Origin: Corallococcus sp. AB030
GTDB taxonomy: Bacteria > Myxococcota > Myxococcia > Myxococcales > Myxococcaceae
Length of the DNA: 39,014 bases
Direction: 5' to 3'
Assembly: GCF_003668965.1 (NCBI RefSeq)
Contig: NZ_RAWQ01000078.1
Location: 1-39,014 of the forward strand
A program made the translations under genes and the position numbers. Positions 6,847-33,284 of the stretch are shown here, one piece after another. The notes under the pieces were generated by a model, which was not told the DNA's origin, made no database searches, and worked only from the letters and a program-made list of their open reading frames with translations. The first letter of the stretch is position 1; every line of letters starts with the position of its first letter.

Positions 6847-7161
6847 ATGTTTCGTCGCAGCAGCGTTCTTCCCTCCCTCTTCGTGTCCCTGCTTTTCGTC
6901 GTGGGCTTCGCGTCGTCGGCCAGCGCTGACACCTACCAGACCTATGTGACGCCCACGGCCAATGGCTATCAGATTGGCACGTACCTCCCCAACCAGCCCA
7001 CCGGGAACTTCAGCAGCGCCGCCGACACCGCCCGCCGCTTCTGTCAGGACCAGGGCCACAGCGGCGCGCAAAGCTTCACCACCGCCATCCGTGGCTCCGC
7101 CTTCTCGTTCATCGTGGGTACGAATGGCGTGGGCAACTGGCTGAGCTATCCCCTCATTTGA
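6847..7161 (+). CDS. Secreted repeat-module protein, 5' portion: signal peptide plus module 1 (NGYQIGTYLPNQPTGNFSSAADTARRFCQDQGH...GTNGVGNW). Truncated by the insertion at 7141
   Basis: Signal peptide MFRRSSVLPSLFVSLLFVVGFASSASA. SD GAGGA lies 6 nt before the ATG. The terminal codons LSYPLI* come from the inserted element. Confidence 0.65.
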   Translation: MFRRSSVLPSLFVSLLFVVGFASSASADTYQTYVTPTANGYQIGTYLPNQPTGNFSSAADTARRFCQDQGHSGAQSFTTAIRGSAFSFIVGTNGVGNWLSYPLI

Positions 7162-7247
7162 AGATTCCCCTCGGAGAATGCATGAGCAGCCGAGCGAGCA
7201 AGCTCAGAGGGGAAATCGAAAATGAGGGGATGCTTCAGGGCAACTGG
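7132..7247. mobile_element. MITE-like 98-bp insertion (7141..7238) with ~19-bp imperfect terminal inverted repeats (CTGAGCTATCCCCTCATTT / AAATGAGGGGATGCTTCAG), flanked by 9-bp direct repeats GGCAACTGG (7132..7140 and 7239..7247)
   Basis: Direct reading. The element has lower GC than its flanks. Deleting 7141..7247 (107 nt) joins 6847..7140 in frame to 7248..7577, giving one signal-peptide plus two-module ORF. Confidence 0.6.
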
Positions 7248-7577
7248 GGCACCACCGGCAATTCCAACGTGACCATGCTGGAGACCGTCACCTGCTTCAC
7301 TTCCAACTCGGGCGTCACCTACACGACTCCCGCAGTCAATGGCTATCAGATTGGCACGTACCTCCCCAACCAGCCCACCGGGAACTTCAGCAGCGCCGCC
7401 GATACCGCCCGCCGCTTCTGCCAGGACCAGGGCCACACCGGCGCGAGCAGCTTCACCACCGCCATCCGTGGCTCCGCCTACTCATTCGTCGTGGGCACGA
7501 ACGGCGTGGGCAACTGGGGCACCACCGGCAATTCCAATGTGACCATGCTCGAAACGGTCACCTGCATCACGCAGTAA
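7182..7577 (+). CDS. Secreted repeat-module protein, 3' portion (remaining tail of module 1 plus complete module 2). Lacks a signal peptide as annotated and is probably the distal part of one gene split by the insertion
   Basis: Module 2 (7327..7517) is ~93% identical in DNA to module 1 (6950..7140). The ATG at 7182 is preceded by GGAGA, but the N-terminus lies inside the inserted element. Confidence 0.55.
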   Translation: MSSRASKLRGEIENEGMLQGNWGTTGNSNVTMLETVTCFTSNSGVTYTTPAVNGYQIGTYLPNQPTGNFSSAADTARRFCQDQGHTGASSFTTAIRGSAYSFVVGTNGVGNWGTTGNSNVTMLETVTCITQ

Positions 7578-7589
7578 CCGACAGTCCGG

Positions 7590-7617
7590 GGACCGGGGCT
7601 CCTCGCGGCCCCGGTCC
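7590..7617 (+). terminator. GC-rich hairpin GGACCGGGGC-N8-GCCCCGGTCC downstream of the repeat-module gene
   Basis: 10-bp perfect stem, 13 nt after the stop at 7577. Confidence 0.5.
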
Positions 7618-7669
7618 ACCGGGTGTCTTCCAGATGCACGCGGCGGTGGAGTGGGTCAGGATGCGGCCC

Positions 7670-8491
7670 ATGTCCAACCTCCAAGGCAAGACCCTCTTCA
7701 TCACCGGCGCCAGCCGCGGCATCGGCAAGGCCATCGCGCTGCGCGCGGCCCGCGACGGCGCCAACATCGTCATCGCCGCGAAAACCACGGACCCGCACCC
7801 CAAGCTGCCCGGCACCATCTACACGGCGGCGAAGGAGATTGAAGAGGCCGGCGGCAAGGCCCTCCCCTGCGTGGTGGACATCCGCGACGAGGCGCAGATC
7901 CACGCCGCCGTCGCCAAGGCCGTGGAGACCTTCGGCGGCATCGACATCCTGGTGAACAACGCCAGCGCCATCAGCCTCACCGGCACGCTGGAGACGCCGC
8001 TCAAGCGCTTCGACCTGATGCACGGCATCAACACGCGCGGCACCTTCGCGTGCTCGCAGGCGTGCATCCCGTACCTCAAGAAGTCCTCCAACCCGCACAT
8101 CCTCAACAACTCGCCGCCGCTCAACATGGAGCCGCGCTGGTTCGGCCCCCACGTGGCCTACACCATCGCGAAGTACGGCATGAGCCTGTGCGCGCTGGGC
8201 ATGGCGGAGGAGCTCAAGGACGACGGCATCGCCGTCAACACGCTGTGGCCCCGCACCGTCATCGCCACCGCCGCCGTGCAGAACCTGCTGGGCGGCGACG
8301 ACACCATCAAGGGCAGCCGCACGCCGGAGATCATGGCCGACGCCGCGTACACCATCCTCACCAAGCCCAGCCGCTCCTTCACCGGCAACTTCTGCATCGA
8401 CGATGAAGTGCTGCGCGCCGCCGGCGTCACCAACCTGGACAAGTACCAGTCCGTCCCCGGCGCGGAGCTGCTGCCCGACTTCTTCCTCTAG
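7670..8491 (+). CDS. SDR-family NAD(P)-dependent oxidoreductase (HSDL2-like short-chain dehydrogenase)
   Basis: TGASRGIGKAIA glycine-rich cofactor motif, NNAS, catalytic YxxxK (YTIAKYG). Start taken at MSNLQGKTLFITG; a TTG further upstream at 7634 is possible. Confidence 0.8.
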   Translation: MSNLQGKTLFITGASRGIGKAIALRAARDGANIVIAAKTTDPHPKLPGTIYTAAKEIEEAGGKALPCVVDIRDEAQIHAAVAKAVETFGGIDILVNNASAISLTGTLETPLKRFDLMHGINTRGTFACSQACIPYLKKSSNPHILNNSPPLNMEPRWFGPHVAYTIAKYGMSLCALGMAEELKDDGIAVNTLWPRTVIATAAVQNLLGGDDTIKGSRTPEIMADAAYTILTKPSRSFTGNFCIDDEVLRAAGVTNLDKYQSVPGAELLPDFFL

Positions 8492-11218: not shown

Positions 11219-12937
11219 CTACTTGTTGATGCGCACCATGGCCACGTCGTAGTGGCGCTCCGTCACGTAGCCGTTCGCGGCCTTGCCGGGGCGGTACATG
11301 TTCCCGGTCTTGTCATCCACGTAGAAGCGGTTGTTCGGGTTCGTGTCCTTGCCCGTGCTGGCGTTCTTCGTGCCCGGGTCGTGGAACGTGTAGTAGGTGC
11401 GGCCCTTGTCGTCGACGCCGCGGCCCGTGATGGTCACGAAGTGGTCCGTGAGGCCGTCCGCGTTGTAGCTCGCGTCCTTGTGGCTCACGCCCACGACCAC
11501 CGGCTTGCCGGCCTCCAGCTGCTTGTCGATGTAGCTGCGGCCCTCGGCGGCCTTCTTCGAGTCCACGTTGAGCGCGCCGACGCCGTTCTCGCTCTTGCCC
11601 ACCTGGATGCGGCGGTCCGGGCCCAGCACGGTCGCGCCGGAGTCACGCGCCATCGCCGTCGCGGCCTTGAAGCACGCCGTGTCGCTCGCGGTGTAGCCGT
11701 GGCCGTTCTCGAACTGGCTGTAGTACGGCACCTTCACGTGCACCGCCGGCTTGTCCTTGGACGGGGCCACCTGCTCCGTGTTCGCCGGGGCCGCCTCCGT
11801 GGTGGGCTTGGAGGTGTTCGTGCCCTGCGTCGTGGGCTTGCCTTCCGTGGTGCCCGGCTTCGAGCCGTTGTTCACGGACGGGGGAACCACGCCCGTGTTG
11901 GTGTTGGCCGGCTTGGTCGTGGTGCCCGACTTCTCCTGCTTCAGCATCGCGAGGGCGTCCTTCGCCTCCGACTTGAAGCGGTTGGCCACGCCCTTCTGCA
12001 CGTCCTTGGAGCTGCCGGAGAAGTGCACCAGGGTGCCGCTGGCGTTGGTGCGGCCGCGCTCGGCGTAGATGTCCTTGATGAGCTGCTCGTCGCTCACCTT
12101 CGCGGGGTCGCGCCCGTTGAGCGCCTTCTTGAAGATGTCGTCCGCCTTGCCCGGGCCGTGCTGCACGGAGGTGGACCAGGCCACGTCCCGCAGCGCCGCG
12201 GAGCGCTTGTCCAGGTCGATGCCCGTCGCCTTCTTGATGTTGGCGGCGCCCGCGTCGTAGTGCGTGGTCTTGATGTAGTCGTGCTGCGCCTTGTCGAAGC
12301 CCTTCGGGTCCTTCGCGGCCAGCTGCTTCCACGCGGCGGAGAACTCCGCGGTGCCCGGCTTGCTGCCCGACAGCGCCTTGTGGAACTCCGGGTTCGTCTT
12401 CTTCAGCGAGTTGACGAACGACTGCGCGGACCCGTTCGCGGAGGCGAACTGGTAGGAGCCGTAGGACACGCCGCCCTTGTCACCCTTGCCCGTGGACACG
12501 GTGCCGGGGCCGCGCGCCTCGTACTTGCGGCTCAGCCCGCCCAGCTCCCCGTTGGTCGCGCTGCTGGAGTTCGTGTTCGCGGCGGGCGTGGTCGCCTTCG
12601 CGCCGTCCGTGGACTGCGTGAAGCTGTCGCCCGACGTCTTCGTCCCCGCGCTCGACTTGTTGGTGCCCTTCGTGTCGAAACCGTCCTGCACCTTCAGCGT
12701 CTGGCCGGCCAGGATCTTGTTCGGATCCTTGATGTTGTTCGCCTTGGCCAGCGCGTCAACGGTCGTGTTGTAGCGCTTCGCGAGGCCGGAAAGCGTGTCG
12801 CCCGAATTGACGCGGATGTTGGAGACGGTCACGGAGAAGACCCCTCTATGTCTGGCCGCGACCAAAGGCGCCGCGGACATGCTTGGATTGCCCGGATTAT
12901 CGAAAGGCAATGCGATCAGTTTCGCATTCCCAGTCAC
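11219..12937 (-). CDS. LysM-domain protein with a central putative lysozyme-like/peptidoglycan-active domain and a C-terminal papain-like cysteine peptidase (Peptidase_C39-like) domain. No recognisable signal peptide
   Basis: LysM: [50 protein letters not shown]-terminal domain: [28 protein letters not shown]...DHFVTITG...FHDPG (Cys/His/Asp order of C39-like peptidases). Linkers are Lys/Thr/Asn/Ser-rich. Start is uncertain: GTG at 12937 or ATG at 12880, neither with a good SD. Confidence 0.65.
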
Positions 12938-13025: not shown

Positions 13026-14060
13026 ATGTCCAGGATCCAACCGGAATTCAAAAATTTTGCATTGCTGTTTGCCATTTGCGTCACGAGCGCGGTCCCGGAC
13101 GCCTCGGCTCAGGGGTCCGAGGGACTCACGGGGGTCTATTCGAACAAGAGCGGGACGCTCGCCATCGTCGAGGGCAGCAACGAGACGCTCGTGCACTTCG
13201 CGGGCTCGTTCCCGCAGGGCAGCAGCGCGGGCACCTGCGATTGCGCCCTGGTCGTCCAGAAGAAGACAGCCACGAATTGGTCACTTCATCAGGCGGGTGA
13301 GGAAGACGCCTGGACGCTGCGCGTCAATCCCAAGCAATTCGTCCTGGAGTCGGGTCCGTCACCGTCCTGTTGCGGCGCCGGCTATTCAGGCAAGGACACG
13401 TTCGCCCGGAGCACCTCCAAGCCGCTGAGCATCTGCAAGGTGAAGGTGTCCAAGGCGGTCTTCCACGCGTCTGACGCGGCCAACACGCCGCGCAAGGCGT
13501 TCGTGGTGTCCGGGGACGCGGTGGAGGCCTACGTCGACCCGGTGGAGCCGGACTTCCTCGCCGCGCGCTTCCAGGGGCCCCAGAAGGCCACGGCGGGGCT
13601 GCTCAAGCGCGAGGACCTGGACTGCGCGTCGGAGTCAGCGCCCACGGCCGCGAAGGCTCCCGTGGCCGCGGACAAGCTCCAGCCGTTCGCGGGGACGTGG
13701 GTGGAGCTGACGCGTCAGGGCAAGGGCTTCGTGGTGCTCAAGCCCTGCTCGGCCGCGACGCGCAGCTTCACCGTCAAGCCCGCGACGGGCGAGGTGGAGG
13801 TGCAGCTGGGCCAGGAGGCCACGACGATGAAGGTGACGTCCGTGGAGGCCGGCAAGGGCGCCGGGGCCTGGGTGCTGGGGCTCACGGCCGCGGACGGCAA
13901 GCCGGAGGCGCTCCAGTGGAAGACGGCCGACGCCGCGAAGGGCACCGTGACCGTGAGCAGCCCGGACCTCTTCTCCCAGAGCCACGACTACGTGCGCCAG
14001 GAGAAGAAGTCCGCCTTCCCGTCCAAGCAGGAGACGGGGTGCGACGAGTTCGAGCGCTAA
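13026..14060 (+). CDS. Secreted hypothetical protein (signal peptide, several Cys pairs)
   Basis: Signal peptide MSRIQPEFKNFALLFAICVTSAVPDASAQG with SD AGGAGGA upstream. Divergent from the LysM-peptidase gene across an AT-rich 88-bp spacer. Confidence 0.6.
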   Translation: MSRIQPEFKNFALLFAICVTSAVPDASAQGSEGLTGVYSNKSGTLAIVEGSNETLVHFAGSFPQGSSAGTCDCALVVQKKTATNWSLHQAGEEDAWTLRVNPKQFVLESGPSPSCCGAGYSGKDTFARSTSKPLSICKVKVSKAVFHASDAANTPRKAFVVSGDAVEAYVDPVEPDFLAARFQGPQKATAGLLKREDLDCASESAPTAAKAPVAADKLQPFAGTWVELTRQGKGFVVLKPCSAATRSFTVKPATGEVEVQLGQEATTMKVTSVEAGKGAGAWVLGLTAADGKPEALQWKTADAAKGTVTVSSPDLFSQSHDYVRQEKKSAFPSKQETGCDEFER

Positions 14061-15637
14061 CGCGCCCGTGAACGCCGCCGGGCCCGCAGGCCCCCGCCGA
14101 GCAGCAGCGCGACGAGCGCACCGGACAGGGGGCCACCCGCGGCCTGGCAGCCACCGTCATCCGAGGGCGTGCGCGGATCATCGATGGGATCCACGGGCCT
14201 GCCCGCGTCCACGGTCCCCGCATCGGAGGTGCCCGCGTCCGCGCCGGCATCGGGCGTCCCAGAGTCGGATCCGGCGTCCGTGCCCGCGTCCATCGACTCG
14301 AGCGGCGCGCAGGACGCGGCCTGGCCGGTGGCCGCGATGCACAGCCGGCCATAGCGGCCCAGGCCTTCCATCCGGCCGTCCACGACCGCCACCATCACGC
14401 GCGTGGCGTCATCCGCGGCCACCTGGGCGCGCAGGGCGTCCGGCCCGTCCACGGTCGCCACCCGCAGCACGGCGTCATCCGTGACGGCCGCGACGACCAG
14501 GTGCACCGTGGCCGGGTCGATGCCCGGCTCGGGCTCGAACGAGGCGCCCACGAAGGAAGCGCCGCCGGGGAGCTCGAAGATCCGCGAGGCCGCCGCCGCG
14601 ACGCGCACGCGGTCGATCGTGGTGGGGAGCTCCGCCGCCGTCTTCGCCACCGATGCATAGCCCTCCCCTCGCGCGTAGCCGAACCCTGGCGTCGCGCGCG
14701 GGCCGGTGCCCAGGTTCCAGGTGGCGAATTGGGCGAAGGCCGCGTCGAAGCTGGAGGCGAAGTCGCGGCGCAGACAGGTGTCCAGCAGCACCGGCCAGCG
14801 GGCCTCCGGCTGGCGCACGGACTCCTCCAGCAGCGCGACGAGCGCGCCGTCACCGTAGCGCTCGCCCACGAACTGGAAGAAGAGCCCCGCGCCGTAGATG
14901 AAGGTCACGCCCGGCCCCGCGGGGTCCAGCACCAGCGTGCTGTCCGGAGTCAGCATGTAGCCGCGGGTGAAGTGCTCCAGGTCGTCGAGCGCGGGCTCGA
15001 AGCGCTCGGTGGCCCAGACGGCGGTGCCCTCGGAGGCGACGCCGCCCAGGTCGGGCCGGTAGGCGGCCTGCACCGCGTGGAAGAACTCGTGGCTGGCCAG
15101 GATCTCCACGGCCTCTGCGTCGGACGGGTAGTTGTAGCCCGTGAAGTCGTTCTCCTGGAGCATGAAGCCGGTGCAGCGCGTGACGCCCTCCAGGCAGGTC
15201 TCCTGCCGGAAGGCGCCGTCGCCAATCCTCGCGAAGTCCACCAGGTACACGTCGAAGCGGCCGTCGCCGCCGTCGTCCCCGGCCGGATTCGTGTCGTCGG
15301 GCGGCAGGCGGAAACCCAGGTCCACGTAGGACGTCGCCACGCGTTCGTAGGTGCGCCCGACGAGCTCCACGAAGTCGGGCACGCCGGTGCCATCCGCGTC
15401 CGCTGGCGGCACGGCGTGCGTGCCCTGGCGGGTGAAGTGGATGCGGAAGCGCCCGCCCGGCGACACGACGGACTCCACCGTGTCCTCGGGCTCATAGCGC
15501 GGCGCCTGCGCGCCAGGCGAGGTGGGCCGCCCGGACTCGGCGACCCGCTTCTGTACGGCCTCCCGCTCGTGCGGGAGGCCGCGCGGGGTTCCCGCGCCGG
15601 CCAGCAGCAGGAGCAGCGTGGGAACCCCGGGGGTCAT
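14057..15637 (-). CDS. Secreted zinc metalloprotease with a C-terminal MYXO-CTERM sorting domain
   Basis: Start at MTPGVPTLLLLLAGAG (signal peptide). HEFFHAVQ zincin motif. Thr/Asp/Ala/Gly-rich linker then GGCQAAGGPLSGALVALLLGGGLRARRRSRAR (GC...hydrophobic...RRR). ATG overlaps the stop of the upstream lipoprotein gene (TGATG). Confidence 0.75.
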   Translation of the reverse strand: MTPGVPTLLLLLAGAGTPRGLPHEREAVQKRVAESGRPTSPGAQAPRYEPEDTVESVVSPGGRFRIHFTRQGTHAVPPADADGTGVPDFVELVGRTYERVATSYVDLGFRLPPDDTNPAGDDGGDGRFDVYLVDFARIGDGAFRQETCLEGVTRCTGFMLQENDFTGYNYPSDAEAVEILASHEFFHAVQAAYRPDLGGVASEGTAVWATERFEPALDDLEHFTRGYMLTPDSTLVLDPAGPGVTFIYGAGLFFQFVGERYGDGALVALLEESVRQPEARWPVLLDTCLRRDFASSFDAAFAQFATWNLGTGPRATPGFGYARGEGYASVAKTAAELPTTIDRVRVAAAASRIFELPGGASFVGASFEPEPGIDPATVHLVVAAVTDDAVLRVATVDGPDALRAQVAADDATRVMVAVVDGRMEGLGRYGRLCIAATGQAASCAPLESMDAGTDAGSDSGTPDAGADAGTSDAGTVDAGRPVDPIDDPRTPSDDGGCQAAGGPLSGALVALLLGGGLRARRRSRAR

Positions 15638-16617
15638 CACGGCAGGAAGGACCACCGCAGGCGGATCGACCCGGAGCTGGCCGTCGAGCTCACCTTGCCC
15701 GTCGTGTTGCACTCCTCCTGGATCGCGGGCTCATAGAAGTCCTTGACCTGCAGCTTCACGTGACGGCCGTCCGCCAGCTGGACCAGGTAGACCTTGTTCG
15801 TCATCTGCAGGCAGGAAGCGTAGTCCCAGTACGAGAGGGTCTGGGTCGCCGGGCTCTGAAGGCCAAACGAGTCCCCGGTGAACGTGCAGGTGTCGGGCGT
15901 GTAGTAGTTCTCCGCCACGAACTGCGCATCCGTGGGCACGGAGGTCACCGACTCGAACGTCGTGCCGTCCGCCGTCTGAGCCACGGTCACGCACGACGGG
16001 CCGGACACGCCGCTGTTGAAGCGGACGACGTAGCGGCGCACCGCGACGTCCCACGCGGTCGAATCCAGCGAGGACTGGTCATCGATGTAGACCTTCTCCA
16101 GGCCCGTCGCCGTGAAGCGCGCGTAGGTGTACGAGTCCGGCACCGCCGTGCCACCCCCGCGGCCATCCAGGTACGTGAGGTGCTCGCCCGCCGTCGTGCC
16201 CTCTTCGATCACGCCGCCGTCGGAGACGACCGTGCGGAGCCGGAGCTTGTCGATGCTCTGCTCCGTGCAGGCCACGGCGTTGCGGCACAGCTCCGCGCCG
16301 CCATCCGTGGGAGGCGTGCCCGCGTCGGTGGTCGTCCCGGCGTCAGTGGTGGTGCCCGCGTCCGTCTCACCGCCCGTGCCCGCGTCCGTCTCAGGCTCTT
16401 CGGTCGGAGTCAGGGTGCGCTGCTCGCACTTCTTGTCCGCGTTGCAGGTCCAGGCCTTGCCTGCGGGGGCCGCCCCCTCATCGCGGCAGTCGAACGCATC
16501 CACGCACTCGTCGCTGCTGCATCCCGGCGCCACCACGGCCAGCGCGAGGGCCGCCAGGGCCCCCATGCCGAACCACCGTGCACTGCTCTTCCGGACCGCC
16601 CCTTCGGGGTTGCTCAT
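15637..16617 (-). CDS. Lipoprotein with TDAG-repeat linker and a Cys-rich C-terminal domain, unknown function
   Basis: Lipobox LALAVVAPGC. Repeats ETDAGTGGETDAGTTTDAGTTTDAGTPPTDGG. ATG at 16617 with SD AAGGTGA. Translationally coupled to the MYXO-CTERM protease. Confidence 0.65.
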   Translation of the reverse strand: MSNPEGAVRKSSARWFGMGALAALALAVVAPGCSSDECVDAFDCRDEGAAPAGKAWTCNADKKCEQRTLTPTEEPETDAGTGGETDAGTTTDAGTTTDAGTPPTDGGAELCRNAVACTEQSIDKLRLRTVVSDGGVIEEGTTAGEHLTYLDGRGGGTAVPDSYTYARFTATGLEKVYIDDQSSLDSTAWDVAVRRYVVRFNSGVSGPSCVTVAQTADGTTFESVTSVPTDAQFVAENYYTPDTCTFTGDSFGLQSPATQTLSYWDYASCLQMTNKVYLVQLADGRHVKLQVKDFYEPAIQEECNTTGKVSSTASSGSIRLRWSFLP

Positions 16618-16711
16618 CGTCGTCACCTTTCACCGCGGAGACCCGCCGCCGTTCGATGGGGACGATCTCTATTCGATAACGATTCTCATTTTCAATATCG
16701 ACGATTCACTT

Positions 16712-25507: not shown

Positions 25508-26374
25508 TCAAGAAAACATGCGCTGCAGGTCCAGTAACATCACCGGATCCGGCAGCCCCGGCGCCCGGAACGTTCCGGGAAGCTCGGCCGGCTTGAACTT
25601 CTGCAGCACACCCAGCACCCGGGTGGCCGCCAGCCCTACGTTCCGCCCCGCCAGTTCCGTGAGGACGAACAGCTCCTCCGCCTGGGCCGGCGCACCCAGC
25701 AGTGCTGGAATCGAACAGATGGGCCATAGCGCCTGCGCGTGGGGATAGACGCCCGCCACCGGCCCGCTCTGCACCGGGAGCACGCTGAACGCCTCGCCCC
25801 GGGGTACCACCTGGGAGACGCAACCCAGCGGGACGCCGAACAGCACCCCCTGGGACTCCAGCACCAGCGCCCGCTCCGGGGGCGCGTCCGCATAGTGCAC
25901 GGGCCGGGGCTCTGGCGGGGTCGCCCGGGGGCCCGCCCGGTGCGGCAGCGCTTCCACGATGAGCTCCAGGTACAGCCGGTCCTTGTGCAGCACCGCGCCC
26001 CGGCTCAGCGGCGCCAGCGAGTCCGCCAGGCCCGGAGGCAGCAGGAAGAACGGGTCCCTCGCGACGTCCGCGACCTCCACCACGGCGCGCACCCGCACCG
26101 CGAGCGTGGGGCTGACGTCCAGGACCACCACCATGCCCGGCACTTCCTCAGGCAGGCCGCCGAGCAGCGCGGCGAGGTCCTTCACTTCCAGTACGCCGCG
26201 CAGACTCGCGCCGCGAGCGCCCGGCATCGCGACCTCGATGACGGAGGTGGCCTCCACCGCGTAGCGCGTCTCTCCGGCCTCCACCAGCAGGCAGAGCCGC
26301 CGTCCGCTTTCAAAGGGCACGGCCCGGGACCCTAGCAGCCTTCCAGCGTTGGGTGCTAAGCCCTGAACAGTCAT
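25508..26374 (-). CDS. Protein with two CheW-like domains
   Basis: RLCLLVEAGETRYAVEATSVIEV...GVLEVKDLAALLG and a second ALVLESQGVLFGVPLGCVSQVV...VLGVLQ block. Start taken at the ATG (MTVQG); its start codon overlaps the divergent gene's ATG (CATG at 26372..26375). Confidence 0.6.
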   Translation of the reverse strand: MTVQGLAPNAGRLLGSRAVPFESGRRLCLLVEAGETRYAVEATSVIEVAMPGARGASLRGVLEVKDLAALLGGLPEEVPGMVVVLDVSPTLAVRVRAVVEVADVARDPFFLLPPGLADSLAPLSRGAVLHKDRLYLELIVEALPHRAGPRATPPEPRPVHYADAPPERALVLESQGVLFGVPLGCVSQVVPRGEAFSVLPVQSGPVAGVYPHAQALWPICSIPALLGAPAQAEELFVLTELAGRNVGLAATRVLGVLQKFKPAELPGTFRAPGLPDPVMLLDLQRMFS

Positions 26375-27761
26375 GGCGCGACTGCTCCTCGTCGACGACG
26401 AAAAGATCGCCCGCAATCTCTACGGCGACTACCTCACGGCCGCGGGACACCTGGTCACGGCGGTGCCCACCGTGGCGGACGCGAAGGCAGCCCTCTCCGC
26501 GGCGCGGTTCGACGCGGTGGTGACGGACCTCATCCTCCCCGGCGGCGACGGCATGGAGGTGCTTCGCCACGTGCGCGAGCGCTACCCCGGCGTGGAGGTG
26601 CTGGTCATCACCGGCCTGGACAAGGTGGCCCCCGCGGTGCGCGCCATCAAGAGCGGCGCGGCGGAGTACCTGGTCAAGCCCGTGGCGCCGGAGGCCCTGG
26701 AGCACGCGCTGCGCCGCGCGCTCACCACGCGCGACCTGATGCGTGAGAACGCGTCCCTGCGCCAGCACGTCGCGCTGCTGGAGGCGGGCCAGCGCATCGC
26801 CACCACGCTCGACCGCGAGCGGCTGTCCACGGCCGCGTCCGACGCGCTGGAGTCCATGGCCAACGCCTCCGCGGTGATGCTCCTGGAGCGGGACCCCGGC
26901 GGCACGGGCTTCCGCTCGCACGGCATGCGCGGGCTGCCGGTGGACCTGCACGAGGCGCTCGTCCCGCTGCTCATCGAGCGGCTTTCGGGCACGCGCACGC
27001 AGGTGGAGCTCGACGGACTTCAAGTTCCCTGGCCGCGCACCCTCTCCTTCCCCGCCGTGGACGGCGAGCTGGTGCTGGGCCACGCGGTGCTCTTCCACGA
27101 CAACGCGCCCGCGGAGCACCACGCGGAGACCGTGGGCTTCCTCGTGCGCAACTGGGCGCTGGCCCTGCGCAACCTGGGCCGCTTCGCCGCCGTGGAGGAC
27201 CTGGCCTACGTCGATGATCTCACCCGCCTGTTCAACACGCGCTACCTGCACCTGGTGCTGGACCGCGAGGTGAACGAGGCCCTCCAGACGGAGCGCCCCT
27301 TCTCCCTGCTGTTCCTGGACCTGGACCGCTTCAAGGCCATCAACGACACGCACGGGCACCTGGTGGGCTCGCGGGTGCTGGTGGAGGCCGCGCGCGTGCT
27401 CAAGGGCTGCGTGCGCGACCCGGACGTGGTGGCGCGCTTCGGCGGCGACGAGTACGTGGTGCTACTGCGCGGCACGGACTCCGGCGGGGCCCTCAAGGTC
27501 GCCGAGCGCATCCGCCGCACCATGGAGACCCATCAGTTCCTGGGCCGCGAGGGGCTGGCGCTCAAGCTCACCACCTGCATCGGCGTGGCCAGCTTCCCGG
27601 AGCACGCCCAGGACAAGGACCACCTGCTGGACCTGTCCGACCGGGCCATGTACCGGGGCAAGCGCGGCACCCGGAACGTCGTCTACATGGCGGCGCAGGA
27701 CCTGGAAGCCACCCCGGCCGAGCGCCGTCAGAATCCCCCGCCCCCGCAGGGCCAGGGCTGA
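26373..27761 (+). CDS. Response regulator receiver, GAF-like and GGDEF (diguanylate cyclase-like) protein, with a GGDEY variant of the active-site motif
   Basis: MARLLLVDDEKIARNLY...DAVVTDLILPGGDGMEV...LVKP. GGDEF domain RLFNTRYLHLVLDREV...DLDRFKAINDTHGH...RFGGDEYVVLL. Confidence 0.8.
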   Translation: MARLLLVDDEKIARNLYGDYLTAAGHLVTAVPTVADAKAALSAARFDAVVTDLILPGGDGMEVLRHVRERYPGVEVLVITGLDKVAPAVRAIKSGAAEYLVKPVAPEALEHALRRALTTRDLMRENASLRQHVALLEAGQRIATTLDRERLSTAASDALESMANASAVMLLERDPGGTGFRSHGMRGLPVDLHEALVPLLIERLSGTRTQVELDGLQVPWPRTLSFPAVDGELVLGHAVLFHDNAPAEHHAETVGFLVRNWALALRNLGRFAAVEDLAYVDDLTRLFNTRYLHLVLDREVNEALQTERPFSLLFLDLDRFKAINDTHGHLVGSRVLVEAARVLKGCVRDPDVVARFGGDEYVVLLRGTDSGGALKVAERIRRTMETHQFLGREGLALKLTTCIGVASFPEHAQDKDHLLDLSDRAMYRGKRGTRNVVYMAAQDLEATPAERRQNPPPPQGQG

Positions 27762-27775
27762 ACGCCGGACGCGCG

Positions 27776-28171
27776 CTACTTGCGCAGGCTGCCCACGGTG
27801 AGGTGCTTGGGCAGCTCCACTTCCGCGGGCACGCCGCCGCCGCCGCCGCCCTCGCCCACCGCCTCCACCTCTTCGTGAGACGCGCCGGTGGTGATGAGGC
27901 GGTACTTCTGCGACGCCTCGCGGTCGTGCTGGGCCTGCTCCGGATCCAACCGCGCGATGAGCTGCCAGAAGAGGGCCGCGTGCTCGCGCTCCTCGTCCAT
28001 GACGTGCCGCAGGATGGCCTTCGCCTCCTCGTTGTCCGTCGCGTCCAGGTGCGCGGCGTAGAGGTTGATGGCGTCCAGCTCCGCCTCGATGTTGAGCCGG
28101 ATGGAGCGGGCCAGTTCGGAGTCCGTCAGCTTCCGGGGCACCAGCGAGTGGAACGGGTTCGTCTGCGGCAT
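27776..28171 (-). CDS. encC: Encapsulin cargo: ferritin-like/rubrerythrin-like protein with a C-terminal encapsulin targeting peptide
   Basis: 131 aa. Ferritin-like helix pair with EAELDAINLYAAH...DEEREHAALF (ExxH iron ligands). Gly-rich flexible linker GEGGGGGGVPAEVELPKH then LTVGSLRK, which matches the M. xanthus EncB/EncC targeting sequence. No shell gene in the window. Confidence 0.7.
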   Translation of the reverse strand: MPQTNPFHSLVPRKLTDSELARSIRLNIEAELDAINLYAAHLDATDNEEAKAILRHVMDEEREHAALFWQLIARLDPEQAQHDREASQKYRLITTGASHEEVEAVGEGGGGGGVPAEVELPKHLTVGSLRK

Positions 28172-28327
28172 GAGGACCTCAGCGACAGGGAGGGTTTCCA
28201 GCAAGCGAGCGGGCAACGACGTTCCGTCAGGCCGGGCTGGAGGACGTGCGCGAGCATCCGTTCGGTCGCGAGCGCGGTCAACCGAATCCCGCTGGGGGTG
28301 CGTTGCGCGTGAACACCTGCCTCCGCC

Positions 28328-29857
28328 ATGCTCCCGTGCATGGAGACCCCCTCGCCGCTCGCGCAGCTGCTCCAGGCCCTGGACGCGGGGGACCTGGAGA
28401 AGGCACGGGTCGCGGCCGTGGCGCTGCAACGCGCCAACGCCCATACCCATCAGGTCGCCGCGGAGGTCCTCCATGAGCTGCGTCAGCCCCTCCTGGGCGC
28501 GAAGGCCTACGCCCAGCTGCTGGCCGAGGAAGGAGGCTCCAGCGGCCCGCTGAAGCTGCTGCTCGCGCAGGTGGAGCGGATGGAGCAGATTGTCTCCGAC
28601 TTCATCCGCCTGGCCAGCGAGCGGCCGGCCCCGCAGCAGCGGCTGTCCCTGGCCGCGCCCATCTGGGCGGCGGCGAAGGTGTTCAGCGTCAACCCGGACT
28701 CGGCGCGCATCTCGCTGGAGGTGGAGGCCCCCGAGGACCTCACCATCCAGGGCAACGCGCGGCTGATTGAGCAGCTCACGCTCAACCTGCTCAACAACGC
28801 CCGCGACGCCATGTCCGGCCGGGGCCGCGTGAAGGTGACGCTCACGCGCGATGGCGCCTCCGCGGCCCTCTACGTTTCCGACTGGGGACCGGGCATCCCG
28901 GACGAGCTGAAGACGCGCATCTTCGAGCCCTACGTCTCCGCCAGCAAACGCGGCACGGGCCTGGGGCTCGCCGTCTGTCGTCGCATCGCGCAGGAGCACC
29001 ACGCGCAGGTTGCCCTGGTGCCGCCCACGACGCTGCGCGAGGTGCCGCCCCCGGCCACGGTGTTCCGCGTGCTCTTCCCGCCCACGGACGCGCCGCGCCC
29101 GCCGCGCAAGCGCCTGCTGGTGGTGGACGACGAGGGCATCATCCGGATGGTCTTCAAGGACCTGATGGACAAGGAGTGCGAAGTCATTGAAGCGGCCACG
29201 GGCGAGGCCGCGCTCGAAATCCTCCGCTCGTCGCGCGTGGACCTCATCGTCACGGACAAGAACCTGCCCGGAATCTCCGGCCTGGAGCTGGCCCAGCACG
29301 CGCGGAAGCTGGACCCCGCGTCGCGCGTCATCCTGATGACGGGCTACCCCTCGCTGGTGACGACGCAGCAGGCGCTGCAGCTGGGCCTGGTGGACTACCT
29401 GCTCAAGCCCTTCGACGACATCCGACAGGTGCGCGCGCTGCTGCGGCAGGCGCTGTACACGCCGGCCGCGCCGCCTGTCCCCGCCCCCAGCGCTGGCGTG
29501 CGCCGGGTGGACGTGCTGGAGGACAACCCGGCCACCGCGCGGCTGATTTCAGAGGCGCTGACGCTGCTGGGCCTGGAGGCGCGCGTCGTCGCGGGCGCGG
29601 AGGTGGCCACCATGGATCCGCCCGTGGGCGTGGTGGTGTCTTGGGACTTCGCGCCGGCCTACGGCAAGAAGGCGCTGGAGCTGGCCCGGGCCCTGAGCCA
29701 GGGCGCGCCCTTCGTTGTCCTGGCCGAGCACCTCACCATGGACACGGCGCTGGCGTCGCTGCGCGCCGGGGCCGCCGCGTGCCTGCCCAAGCTGCTCTCC
29801 GACACCACGGCGCTCAGCCGCGAGCTGGGCCTGGCCTTCAAGAAGACCGCTTCCTGA
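28328..29857 (+). CDS. Cytoplasmic hybrid histidine kinase (HisKA, HATPase_c, receiver, degenerate receiver-like domain); no transmembrane or sensor domain
   Basis: H-box HELRQPLLGAKAYAQLL. N and G boxes LNLLNNARDA...GTGLGLAVC. Receiver LLVVDDEGIIR...DLIVTDKNLPGISG...LKPF. Confidence 0.8.
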   Translation: MLPCMETPSPLAQLLQALDAGDLEKARVAAVALQRANAHTHQVAAEVLHELRQPLLGAKAYAQLLAEEGGSSGPLKLLLAQVERMEQIVSDFIRLASERPAPQQRLSLAAPIWAAAKVFSVNPDSARISLEVEAPEDLTIQGNARLIEQLTLNLLNNARDAMSGRGRVKVTLTRDGASAALYVSDWGPGIPDELKTRIFEPYVSASKRGTGLGLAVCRRIAQEHHAQVALVPPTTLREVPPPATVFRVLFPPTDAPRPPRKRLLVVDDEGIIRMVFKDLMDKECEVIEAATGEAALEILRSSRVDLIVTDKNLPGISGLELAQHARKLDPASRVILMTGYPSLVTTQQALQLGLVDYLLKPFDDIRQVRALLRQALYTPAAPPVPAPSAGVRRVDVLEDNPATARLISEALTLLGLEARVVAGAEVATMDPPVGVVVSWDFAPAYGKKALELARALSQGAPFVVLAEHLTMDTALASLRAGAAACLPKLLSDTTALSRELGLAFKKTAS

Positions 29858-29942: not shown

Positions 29943-31634
<1,692 letters not shown>

Positions 31635-31661
31635 TTAGCACTCGGCCATGTCGAGCGCCAA
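31635..31661. promoter_or_regulatory. CIRCE (HrcA operator) inverted repeat TTAGCACTC-N9-GAGCGCCAA upstream of groEL
   Basis: Left arm is a perfect match to CIRCE consensus TTAGCACTC-N9-GAGTGCTAA; right arm has 2 mismatches. Lies ~50–75 bp upstream of the groEL ATG. Confidence 0.75.
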
Positions 31662-31765: not shown

Positions 31766-32122
31766 CTACTCCGCGAAGCGCACGAGGTTGAGCAGCTGCC
31801 CCATGTCCAGGGGCTTCTGCAGGGTGATGGCGACGCCCTTGCGCAGGCCCCGGTCGGAGATGTTGGCGTCCGTGCTGGCGGTCATCATCAGGACGGAGAT
31901 GCGCTGGAAGCGGGGATCCGCCTTCAGCATCTCCGTGAAGTGGATGCCGTCCAGGTGGGGCATCAGGTAGTCGGTGATGACCAGCCCCACGGGGTGACGC
32001 TCCATGATGTCCAGGGCCTGGAGCGCGTCCGACGCCGAGAACACGGTGTAGCCATGCATCTCCAGGTAGCGAGAGAGCATGGTGCACAGCTCGTAATCGT
32101 CGTCGACGACCAGGATGTTCAC
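31766..32122 (-). CDS. Single-domain CheY-like response regulator
   Basis: MNILVVDDDYELCTMLSRYLE...VGLVITDYLMPHLDGIHF...LQKP. 118 aa. Confidence 0.8.
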   Translation of the reverse strand: MNILVVDDDYELCTMLSRYLEMHGYTVFSASDALQALDIMERHPVGLVITDYLMPHLDGIHFTEMLKADPRFQRISVLMMTASTDANISDRGLRKGVAITLQKPLDMGQLLNLVRFAE

Positions 32123-32210
32123 GGGGTTCGGGCCGAAACGGGGCGCTGGAAGGTAACAGCGACGCCGGTCGTTGACAACGCGAAGGACGGCTTCTTAGCT
32201 GCCGGCCCGA

Positions 32211-33284
32211 ATGGCGAAGCGCATGGCGAAGCAAGGGGAGGCGCGGGACATGGACGCGCGGCTGGAGGGAGTCGCGGACGCCTTCGAGGCGAGGGACTTC
32301 GAGGCCGCGCTCACCAGCGCCGACGCCCTGCTCCGGGACGTTCCGGACTCACCAGAAGCCCTGCACTACCGGGCCGCCGCGCTGGTGGAGGTGGGACGCC
32401 TGGAGGACGCGGGCAAGGCCTATGGCGCCGCCCTCAAGATGGCCCCGGAAGACCTGGAGATCCTCTTCGGCGCGGCGGAATTCCTCGTGTGCCGCACCGG
32501 CGAGGACCGCGAGGCGGTGGAGGAAGGGCTGGAGTGGTGCGGCCGCGGGCGGAAGCTGGCGCAGCGGGCCGATGACGTGGAACTCGTCTACGAGTTCCTC
32601 CTCCTGGAGGGCATGGGCCTCAACCAGCTGGGGGAATGTGAGTCCGCGCTGAAAATCCTGGACCAGGCGCTGACGCACATGCCGCGCTCGACGGACGCGC
32701 AGCTGGAGCGGGGCATCGCGCTGTTCGAGTTGTGCCGCTTCGCGCCCGCGCAGGAGGCCTTCGAGCGGGTGTTGAAGGACGCGCCGGACGAGGCCTGGGC
32801 GCACCACTACCTGGGGCTGGTCGCGGAGCGGCGCCAGGATGCGAAGGAGGCGAAGAAGCGCTTCTCCCGGGCGCAGGCGCTGGCCCCGGAGGAGCTGCCG
32901 CCGCCGGTGGCACTGGAGGAGGCGGCGTTCGACCGCGCGGTGGAGGACGCGATGCGCGCCCTGCCCTCCCAGGTGAAGCAGTACATGGACAACGTGACGC
33001 TGGCGGTGGAGGACCTGCCGTCGGATGAGGACCTGCTGGGTCAGCAGCCGCCACTGTCACCGTGCATCCTGGGGGTGTTCCGGGGCACGCCCGTGGGCGA
33101 GCGCAGCGTGATGGACGCGGCGGATCACTTCCCGCCCTCCATCGTGCTGTACCAGAAGAACCTGGAGCGCTTCGCGCGCACCCGCGAGGAGCTCATCGAA
33201 CAGATTGGCATCACGGTGATGCACGAAGTCGGTCACTTGATGGGTCTGGATGAAGACGACCTGTGGGAGCGGGGGCTGGACTAG
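32211..33284 (+). CDS. TPR-repeat protein with a C-terminal zincin-like minimal metallopeptidase domain (Zincin_1/DUF1025-like)
   Basis: TPR-like helices in the N-terminal half. C-terminal ...IGITVMHEVGHLMGLDEDDLWERGLD (HExxH-type). Confidence 0.65.
   Translation: MAKRMAKQGEARDMDARLEGVADAFEARDFEAALTSADALLRDVPDSPEALHYRAAALVEVGRLEDAGKAYGAALKMAPEDLEILFGAAEFLVCRTGEDREAVEEGLEWCGRGRKLAQRADDVELVYEFLLLEGMGLNQLGECESALKILDQALTHMPRSTDAQLERGIALFELCRFAPAQEAFERVLKDAPDEAWAHHYLGLVAERRQDAKEAKKRFSRAQALAPEELPPPVALEEAAFDRAVEDAMRALPSQVKQYMDNVTLAVEDLPSDEDLLGQQPPLSPCILGVFRGTPVGERSVMDAADHFPPSIVLYQKNLERFARTREELIEQIGITVMHEVGHLMGLDEDDLWERGLD

Follow-up and report, generated by a model that had tools for sequence, protein, structure and literature searches.

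The gene at positions 27776..28171 on the minus strand of a stretch of 39,014 nucleotides from Corallococcus sp. AB030 (contig NZ_RAWQ01000078.1; this whole stretch of DNA is called the window) encodes a small ferritin-like protein that ends in an encapsulin targeting peptide (TP), and it lies among signalling genes. The locus raises the question of whether this protein is an encapsulin cargo, where the shell that it would enter is encoded, and whether its neighbours take part in its expression. In Myxococcus xanthus, the system consists of the shell protein EncA, of EncB as the cargo encoded in the same operon, and of EncC and EncD as secondary cargos, which are encoded elsewhere and are co-encapsulated (PMC8229669). 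EncA, EncB, EncC and EncD of M. xanthus are among the best-characterised encapsulin proteins, with crystal and cryo-EM structures, a native cargo stoichiometry and engineered use as iron and EM reporters. According to a 2021 review, natural co-encapsulation of a secondary cargo has been shown in M. xanthus alone (PMC8229669). Here, we find that the window gene very probably encodes the Corallococcus EncC, a secondary cargo of the family-1 encapsulin iron-storage compartment that would be loaded in trans. Nothing in the data contradicts this explanation, which is the best available.

Identity and extent of the encC gene

The encC coding sequence comprises 131 codons and a stop codon. It starts with an ATG at 28171 and ends with a TAG at 27776..27778, and the product of 131 aa reads MPQTNPFH...GEGGGGGGVPAEVELPKHLTVGSLRK (the full 131 residues taken from the window are MPQTNPFHSLVPRKLTDSELARSIRLNIEAELDAINLYAAHLDATDNEEAKAILRHVMDEEREHAALFWQLIARLDPEQAQHDREASQKYRLITTGASHEEVEAVGEGGGGGGVPAEVELPKHLTVGSLRK). 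Since the N-terminus MPQTNPFH is kept in nearly all EncC orthologs and a GAGG sits 7 nt upstream of the ATG, the 131-aa reading is considered correct. In a cross-genus alignment, the conservation of the DNA 5′ of encC also shifts in character at this ATG. The mechanical list of open reading frames contained a 507-aa version of the same frame starting from an upstream GTG; it was rejected, as the added part overlaps the real kinase gene in antisense.

A search of the PDB sequences returned M. xanthus EncC (PDB 7S8T) as a full-length match (residues 1-131, E=3.5e-64), with weaker matches to the encapsulated ferritins Rru_A0973, a P. furiosus fusion protein and EncB. Two family models scored above their cutoffs, Pfam EncFtn-like PF22277 with 36.5 bits (cutoff 27) across residues 22-82 and NCBIfam EncB_fam NF058679 with 111.2 bits (cutoff 90). 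Compared to the M. xanthus ortholog, MXAN_4464, 105/131 residues are identical overall (80%); the folded domain accounts for 89/100 (89%), the linker for 9/22 and the last nine residues for 7/9. These matches, along with the ferroxidase residues described below, bear out the initial annotation, which had placed a 131-aa ferritin-like protein of the EncC type at this position. Judging from its sequence, the window gene carries every tested feature of EncC/EncFtn FLP-TP membership, and it is a straightforward ortholog of the structurally and functionally characterised EncC at a conserved genomic position.

An identical EncC protein is encoded in GCA_013248915.1, GCA_013155175.1 and GCA_003668935.1 and is recorded as a Corallococcus multispecies entry. 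The best matches to the window DNA are contigs of the C. exiguus group (99.1-99.9% identity), and identity is 97.9-99.9% across the Corallococcus loci compared; the source strain belongs to the C. exiguus group.

Ferroxidase residues, linker and targeting peptide of EncC

Residues 1-100 (27872..28171, minus strand) form the EncFtn-type two-helix ferritin-like domain that is recognised by PF22277. The ferroxidase residues of the Rhodospirillum rubrum EncFtn (Rru_A0973) are E32, Y39, E62 and H65 (PMC5012862). Since EncC aligns to Rru_A0973 with a shift of +1 residue, these correspond to E31, Y38, E61 and H64 in EncC, the last two within an ExxH motif. All four residues are present in the window protein and each is common to at least 90% of 61 aligned sequences, as is the window residue at most positions of the domain. 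Rru_A0973 (PDB 5DA5) and the Haliangium ochraceum EncFtn have the same two-helix fold, cross-dimer ferroxidase centre and C-terminal TP as EncC. They differ from it in sequence (~33% identity; PMC5012862), in having a T=1 shell gene directly beside them and in a TP of the SLGIGSLK type, unlike LTVGSLRK.

The domain is followed by an acidic, Gly-rich and variable linker at residues 101-122 (EEVEAVGEGGGGGGVPAEVELPK; 27806..27871, minus strand). Among the 61 sequences, per-column conservation drops to 0-0.6 at roughly residues 108-122. The linker differs in length and composition between genera, and the 10-20 residues that precede the TP differ freely among EncC orthologs, both in sequence and in length. 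The window linker is more Gly-rich than that of M. xanthus EncC (GEGGGGGG vs KEGAAPSP), and the preceding residues are PKH and EKR, respectively.

The targeting (cargo-loading) peptide LTVGSLRK occupies residues 124-131 (27779..27802, minus strand). When all six frames of the 39 kb window were scanned with a regular expression for the TP motif, the sole match was at 27785..27802, two residues before the encC stop, and no further TP-bearing cargo was found in the window. A C-terminal motif close to LTVG[SNGT][LM]R occurs in about 50 of 58 full-length ortholog translations, drawn from 66 loci of different genomes. The published TP is LTVGSLR for EncB, EncC and EncD, and PEKRLTVGSLRR for EncC (PMC11126975, PMC10402063). 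The C-terminus had been read from the beginning as a Gly-rich linker plus LTVGSLRK, a reading that agrees with the M. xanthus peptide and with the conservation of the TP next to a variable linker. Such a pattern is the signature to be expected of a flexible tether that carries a docking peptide.

The terminal Lys of the peptide is found in all full-length Corallococcus EncC orthologs scanned, except one labelled C. terminator strain BB12-2. Outside Corallococcus it was seen in just one closely related MAG, and other genera mostly have Arg, as does M. xanthus EncC, in which this last Arg makes electrostatic contacts with D214 and Y217 of EncA (PMC11126975). By this comparison, Lys for Arg at the end of the TP appears as a conservative change that is typical of Corallococcus.

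The window protein is known from sequence alone, and in its main features it resembles M. xanthus EncC (MXAN_4464, UniProt Q1D3Y8, PDB 7S8T), a cargo of the T=3 EncA shell. The lengths are 131 and 130 aa, and the two proteins have the same ferroxidase residues, the same layout of linker plus TP, a locus adjacent to groEL2 and a location apart from the encB-encA operon. M. xanthus EncB (MXAN_3557, PDB 7S5C), the primary cargo, shares the EncFtn-type domain and a related TP with the window EncC, but the match is weak (E=1.8e-06). EncB has 157-163 aa and is operonic with encA; unlike in the window protein, its linker is rich in Pro and Ala and further residues follow the TP. With the NCBIfam EncB 'exception' model, the window EncC reached 30 bits vs a cutoff of 210.

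The shell operon lies elsewhere in conspecific genomes

A tblastn search of the 39 kb window with M. xanthus EncA, the query having been verified against PDB 4PT2, gave noise matches only (E>4), in keeping with the earlier statement that the window holds no shell gene. It is in assemblies of conspecific strains, rather than of the source strain itself, that the shell operon was found. One of them, GCA_003668935.1, encodes the identical EncC on contig RAWP01000027.1 and has the encB-encA operon on RAWP01000015.1. Another, GCA_009909105.1, has the two loci on a single contig, JAAAPK010000002.1, with encC at ~371 kb and encA at ~915 kb, i.e. ~544 kb apart. Since encA and the primary cargo gene encB lie hundreds of kb away, EncC would be a 'secondary cargo' that is recruited in trans. 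Recruitment in trans was what the initial annotation had proposed; it had named the absence of a shell gene from the genome as grounds for giving up the idea, and the conspecific assemblies contain that gene.

The shell protein itself is highly similar in the two genera: Corallococcus EncA is identical to M. xanthus EncA at 272/287 positions (95%), and D39, D214 and Y217, which contact the TP in EncA (PMC11126975), are unchanged. The Corallococcus EncB encoded beside encA ends ...PLTIGSLRRGGGSGG... and carries PLTIGSLRR. In addition, a gene for a sigma-54-dependent response regulator (receiver, Sigma54_activat and HTH_8 domains) directly follows encA and is itself followed by an M23 peptidase gene in 16/16 Corallococcus loci that extend far enough; one example is at 6898..8322 in the encB-encA locus of GCA_003668935.1 (L015).

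Across 66 encC loci from different genomes, which cover Corallococcus, Myxococcus, Pyxidicoccus, Citreicoccus, Hyalangium, Vitiosangium, Archangium and related MAGs, encA was not found within 8 kb of encC in any (0 of 66). The order TPR-zincin / response regulator / groEL2 / hybrid kinase / encC / response regulator-GGDEF / CheW-like / ValRS is kept in most of them. Because the order is kept and encA is never near, the separation of encC from the shell is regarded as ancestral to the group and not peculiar to the source genome. Among the genomes compared, both Myxococcaceae and Archangiaceae keep encC apart from the shell gene. The cargo had been termed an 'orphan', which is right insofar as it is encoded away from its shell, but the arrangement is not unusual, since M. 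xanthus EncC is normally encoded in this way, as published (PMC8229669). The feature is not new, and the location away from the shell is textbook for the M. xanthus system. The family-1 secondary cargos BfrB and FolB of Mycobacterium tuberculosis likewise have shell-distant loci and a C-terminal loading peptide (PMC8229669), though they belong to protein families other than that of EncC.

Neighbourhood and upstream region of encC

Pfam assignments place encC between the genes for a receiver-GGDEF protein (26373..27761, plus strand) and a hybrid histidine kinase (28328..29857, plus strand). On the side of the GGDEF gene are those for a CheW-like protein (25508..26416, minus strand), a response regulator (24128..25474, minus strand) and ValRS (20580..24074, minus strand). 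On the kinase side are those for GroEL (groEL2) without groES (29943..31586, minus strand), a single-domain orphan response regulator (31766..32194, minus strand) and a TPR-zincin protein (32211..33284, plus strand). A CIRCE-like inverted repeat, TTAGCACTC-N9-GAGCGCCAA, lies upstream of groEL at 31635..31661, between the orphan response regulator gene and this groEL without groES; it has 2 mismatches to the consensus, and 0 chance matches are expected. The receiver-GGDEF protein, the hybrid kinase and the CIRCE-regulated groEL2 had all been named as neighbours previously, and all are recovered here. In M. xanthus, groEL2 (MXAN_4467) is likewise without groES and lies downstream of the orphan response regulator gene MXAN_4468, with a CIRCE/HrcA-controlled promoter between them (PMC9040617). 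The order of the encC locus matches that of M. xanthus AM003, and encC is in the position orthologous to MXAN_4464, beside groEL2/MXAN_4467 and the response regulator gene MXAN_4468.

Other genes of the window were noted in passing. The ValRS has a C-terminal tail of ~110 residues (residues ~1047-1159) that matches histone H1-like HC2 and extensin profiles, which are low-complexity models; the tail is called in conspecific contigs as well. A protein of 758 aa that is homologous to the eukaryotic major vault protein is encoded at 16712..18988 (minus strand), ~9 kb from encC, and is present in a conspecific contig too. It matches the Pfam Vault repeats and MVP_shoulder (9e-45) and, in the PDB, rat/human MVP with E ~1e-139 (residues 111-742 against MVP 214-857); no relevant paper on a bacterial or myxobacterial major vault protein was found in the literature searched. 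Further along are genes for an HmuY-like protein of the haem-binding family (15637..16626, minus strand) and for a LysM protein whose C-terminal domain resembles the VgrG3 of type VI secretion (11219..12937, minus strand). Between these two, the region 13026..15712 holds ORFs of 344 and 551 aa that have no Pfam match.

The encC gene is convergent with the GGDEF gene, with 14 bp between the stops, and divergent from the kinase gene, with 156 bp between them, and the opposite-strand kinase separates it from groEL2. For these reasons encC is read as monocistronic, with no co-transcription with any neighbour. Within the 156-bp intergenic region shared with the kinase gene, the promoter-like motif TTGACC-N17-GATGCT (28253..28281, minus strand) lies ~80 nt upstream of the encC ATG. 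When 18 upstream regions were aligned (from Corallococcus, Myxococcus, Pyxidicoccus, Hyalangium, Citreicoccus, Vitiosangium, Archangium and MAGs), GTTGAC and GATGCT were invariant at a -35/-10-like spacing and the flanking and intervening sequence diverged, which suggests that this motif is encC's own putative promoter. When 27500..28500 was scanned for generic sigma-70 promoters and terminators, there was no match; the scan missed the motif because the -10 hexamer of the latter matches only 3/6 positions. The region upstream of encB has TTGACG-N17-GAGGGT, which is just loosely similar to the encC motif, and no conclusion is drawn from it. Since a sigma-54 activator gene follows encA, sigma-54 promoters were also sought; a simple pattern found no such site in the three upstream regions scanned, one of encC and two of encB.

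Further upstream of the putative promoter, the alignment has a near-invariant GCAACGC block. The start of the kinase gene on the other side is ambiguous: the product has 509 aa from an ATG at 28328 and 505 aa from an ATG at 28340, and each of the two is used in public annotations. An AGCATG block at the upstream one of these two ATGs is invariant across genera, as is the GCAACGC block. The two blocks could be the start or promoter of the kinase itself, or a shared operator.

The initial annotation had also seen in this placement a hint that encC is co-regulated with stress responses, so that groEL2 with its CIRCE element, the hybrid kinase, the response regulator-GGDEF protein and encC would make up a stress module that tunes the supply of cargo. 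The gene order kept in most of the 66 loci, which span several genera, fits such a module, as do the conserved blocks in the divergent region shared with the kinase. Moreover, the encapsulin system and chaperonins are both stress-responsive (PMC7355545), and the regulation of secondary cargos, on which the 2021 review had no data, is reported there as unknown (PMC8229669). However, encC is in no operon with these genes, being convergent with one neighbour and divergent from the other, and groEL2 lies beyond the opposite-strand kinase with a CIRCE/HrcA promoter of its own. Conserved gene order alone is weak evidence for co-regulation, because the whole ~15 kb block is syntenic, housekeeping ValRS included, and the order may reflect general stability of the chromosome. 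In addition, MXAN_4464 is not named in the main text of the mSystems paper on the MXAN_4468 regulon (PMC9040617). With an opposite-strand kinase in between and a promoter-like motif of its own, encC gains no support from gene organisation for the hint, and we consider a common stress module unlikely. A narrower version, in which the back-to-back placement with the kinase and the shared invariant blocks reflect direct control of secondary-cargo supply by the kinase or the response regulator-GGDEF protein, is improbable too; if true, it would offer a first handle on the EncB:EncC:EncD loading ratio.

Proposed function of EncC

In M. xanthus, EncC forms decamers with ferroxidase centres (PMC11126975), its encapsulation in EncA is known (PMC11126975, PMC10402063), and at ~52% it is the most abundant of the native cargos (PMC10402063). 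Starvation induces the M. xanthus encapsulin system, for which a protective role against oxidative stress through iron sequestration has been proposed (PMC7355545). The sequence, family, catalytic and targeting residues and synteny of the window EncC, and the shell operon seen in conspecific genomes, are the observations from which a function can be proposed by analogy. Decamer formation, encapsulation and iron oxidation by Corallococcus EncC are what the M. xanthus experiments would predict. The gene would be transcribed alone from its conserved putative promoter. The two-helix domains of EncC would pair into dimers, each chain contributing its E31, Y38, E61 and H64 to a di-iron ferroxidase centre, and five such dimers would close into a decameric ring. 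Thanks to the flexible Gly-rich linker, LTVGSLRK could dock in the inner-face pocket of EncA during assembly of the T=3 shell. Once enclosed, EncC would oxidise Fe2+ that arrives via the shell pores, with the iron laid down as a mineral core, and this core may protect the cell in starvation and oxidative stress.

A gene that is transcribed separately and at a distant locus might instead be expressed independently of encA, with a substantial share of EncC remaining unencapsulated and working as a free decameric ferroxidase; isolated EncFtn decamers are indeed active in vitro (PMC5012862). Against this, so strictly conserved a TP points to selection for encapsulation, the ferroxidase activity of EncFtn is higher inside the shell according to reviews (PMC8229669), and native M. 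xanthus particles contain EncC as their main cargo (PMC10402063). A large pool of free EncC therefore seems quite unlikely.

EncC is extremely unlikely to be a di-iron enzyme of the COQ7/demethoxyubiquinone hydroxylase or rubrerythrin type that is free in the cytosol and has no link to encapsulin, as could be read from the record names 'demethoxyubiquinone hydroxylase family protein' or 'ferritin' (NCBI/UniRef) and 'rubrerythrin' (JGI) and from partial Pfam matches just over the cutoffs (COQ7, 25.6 bits; Rubrerythrin, 25.9 bits): these matches cover just 2-59 of 169 and 5-69 of 137 profile positions, NCBIfam DMQ_monoox_COQ7 NF033656 gives 14.5 bits vs a cutoff of 180, a single ExxH motif in a folded part of ~100 residues amounts to half a four-helix bundle, encapsulated ferritins account for all of the best matches, and the conserved C-terminal TP would have no role in such enzymes. 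Both identities were rejected on score and coverage and are effectively refuted by the family scores. Rubrerythrins also typically carry a C-terminal rubredoxin-like domain, which would not fit EncC, whose 131 aa end in the linker and TP.

Annotation and significance

These names are nevertheless widespread. Public records use 'demethoxyubiquinone hydroxylase family protein', 'ferritin' or 'rubrerythrin' for the identical protein and for many orthologs, despite an EncB_fam score above the cutoff, and it looks as if EncC orthologs are systematically misannotated. The misleading names could be corrected with the NCBIfam EncB_fam model, and beyond annotation the window encC matters little. For the myxobacterial encapsulin system as such, the conserved promoter-like motif, the fixed neighbourhood and the divergent kinase gene may serve as a starting point for asking how the expression of a secondary cargo relates to shell assembly.
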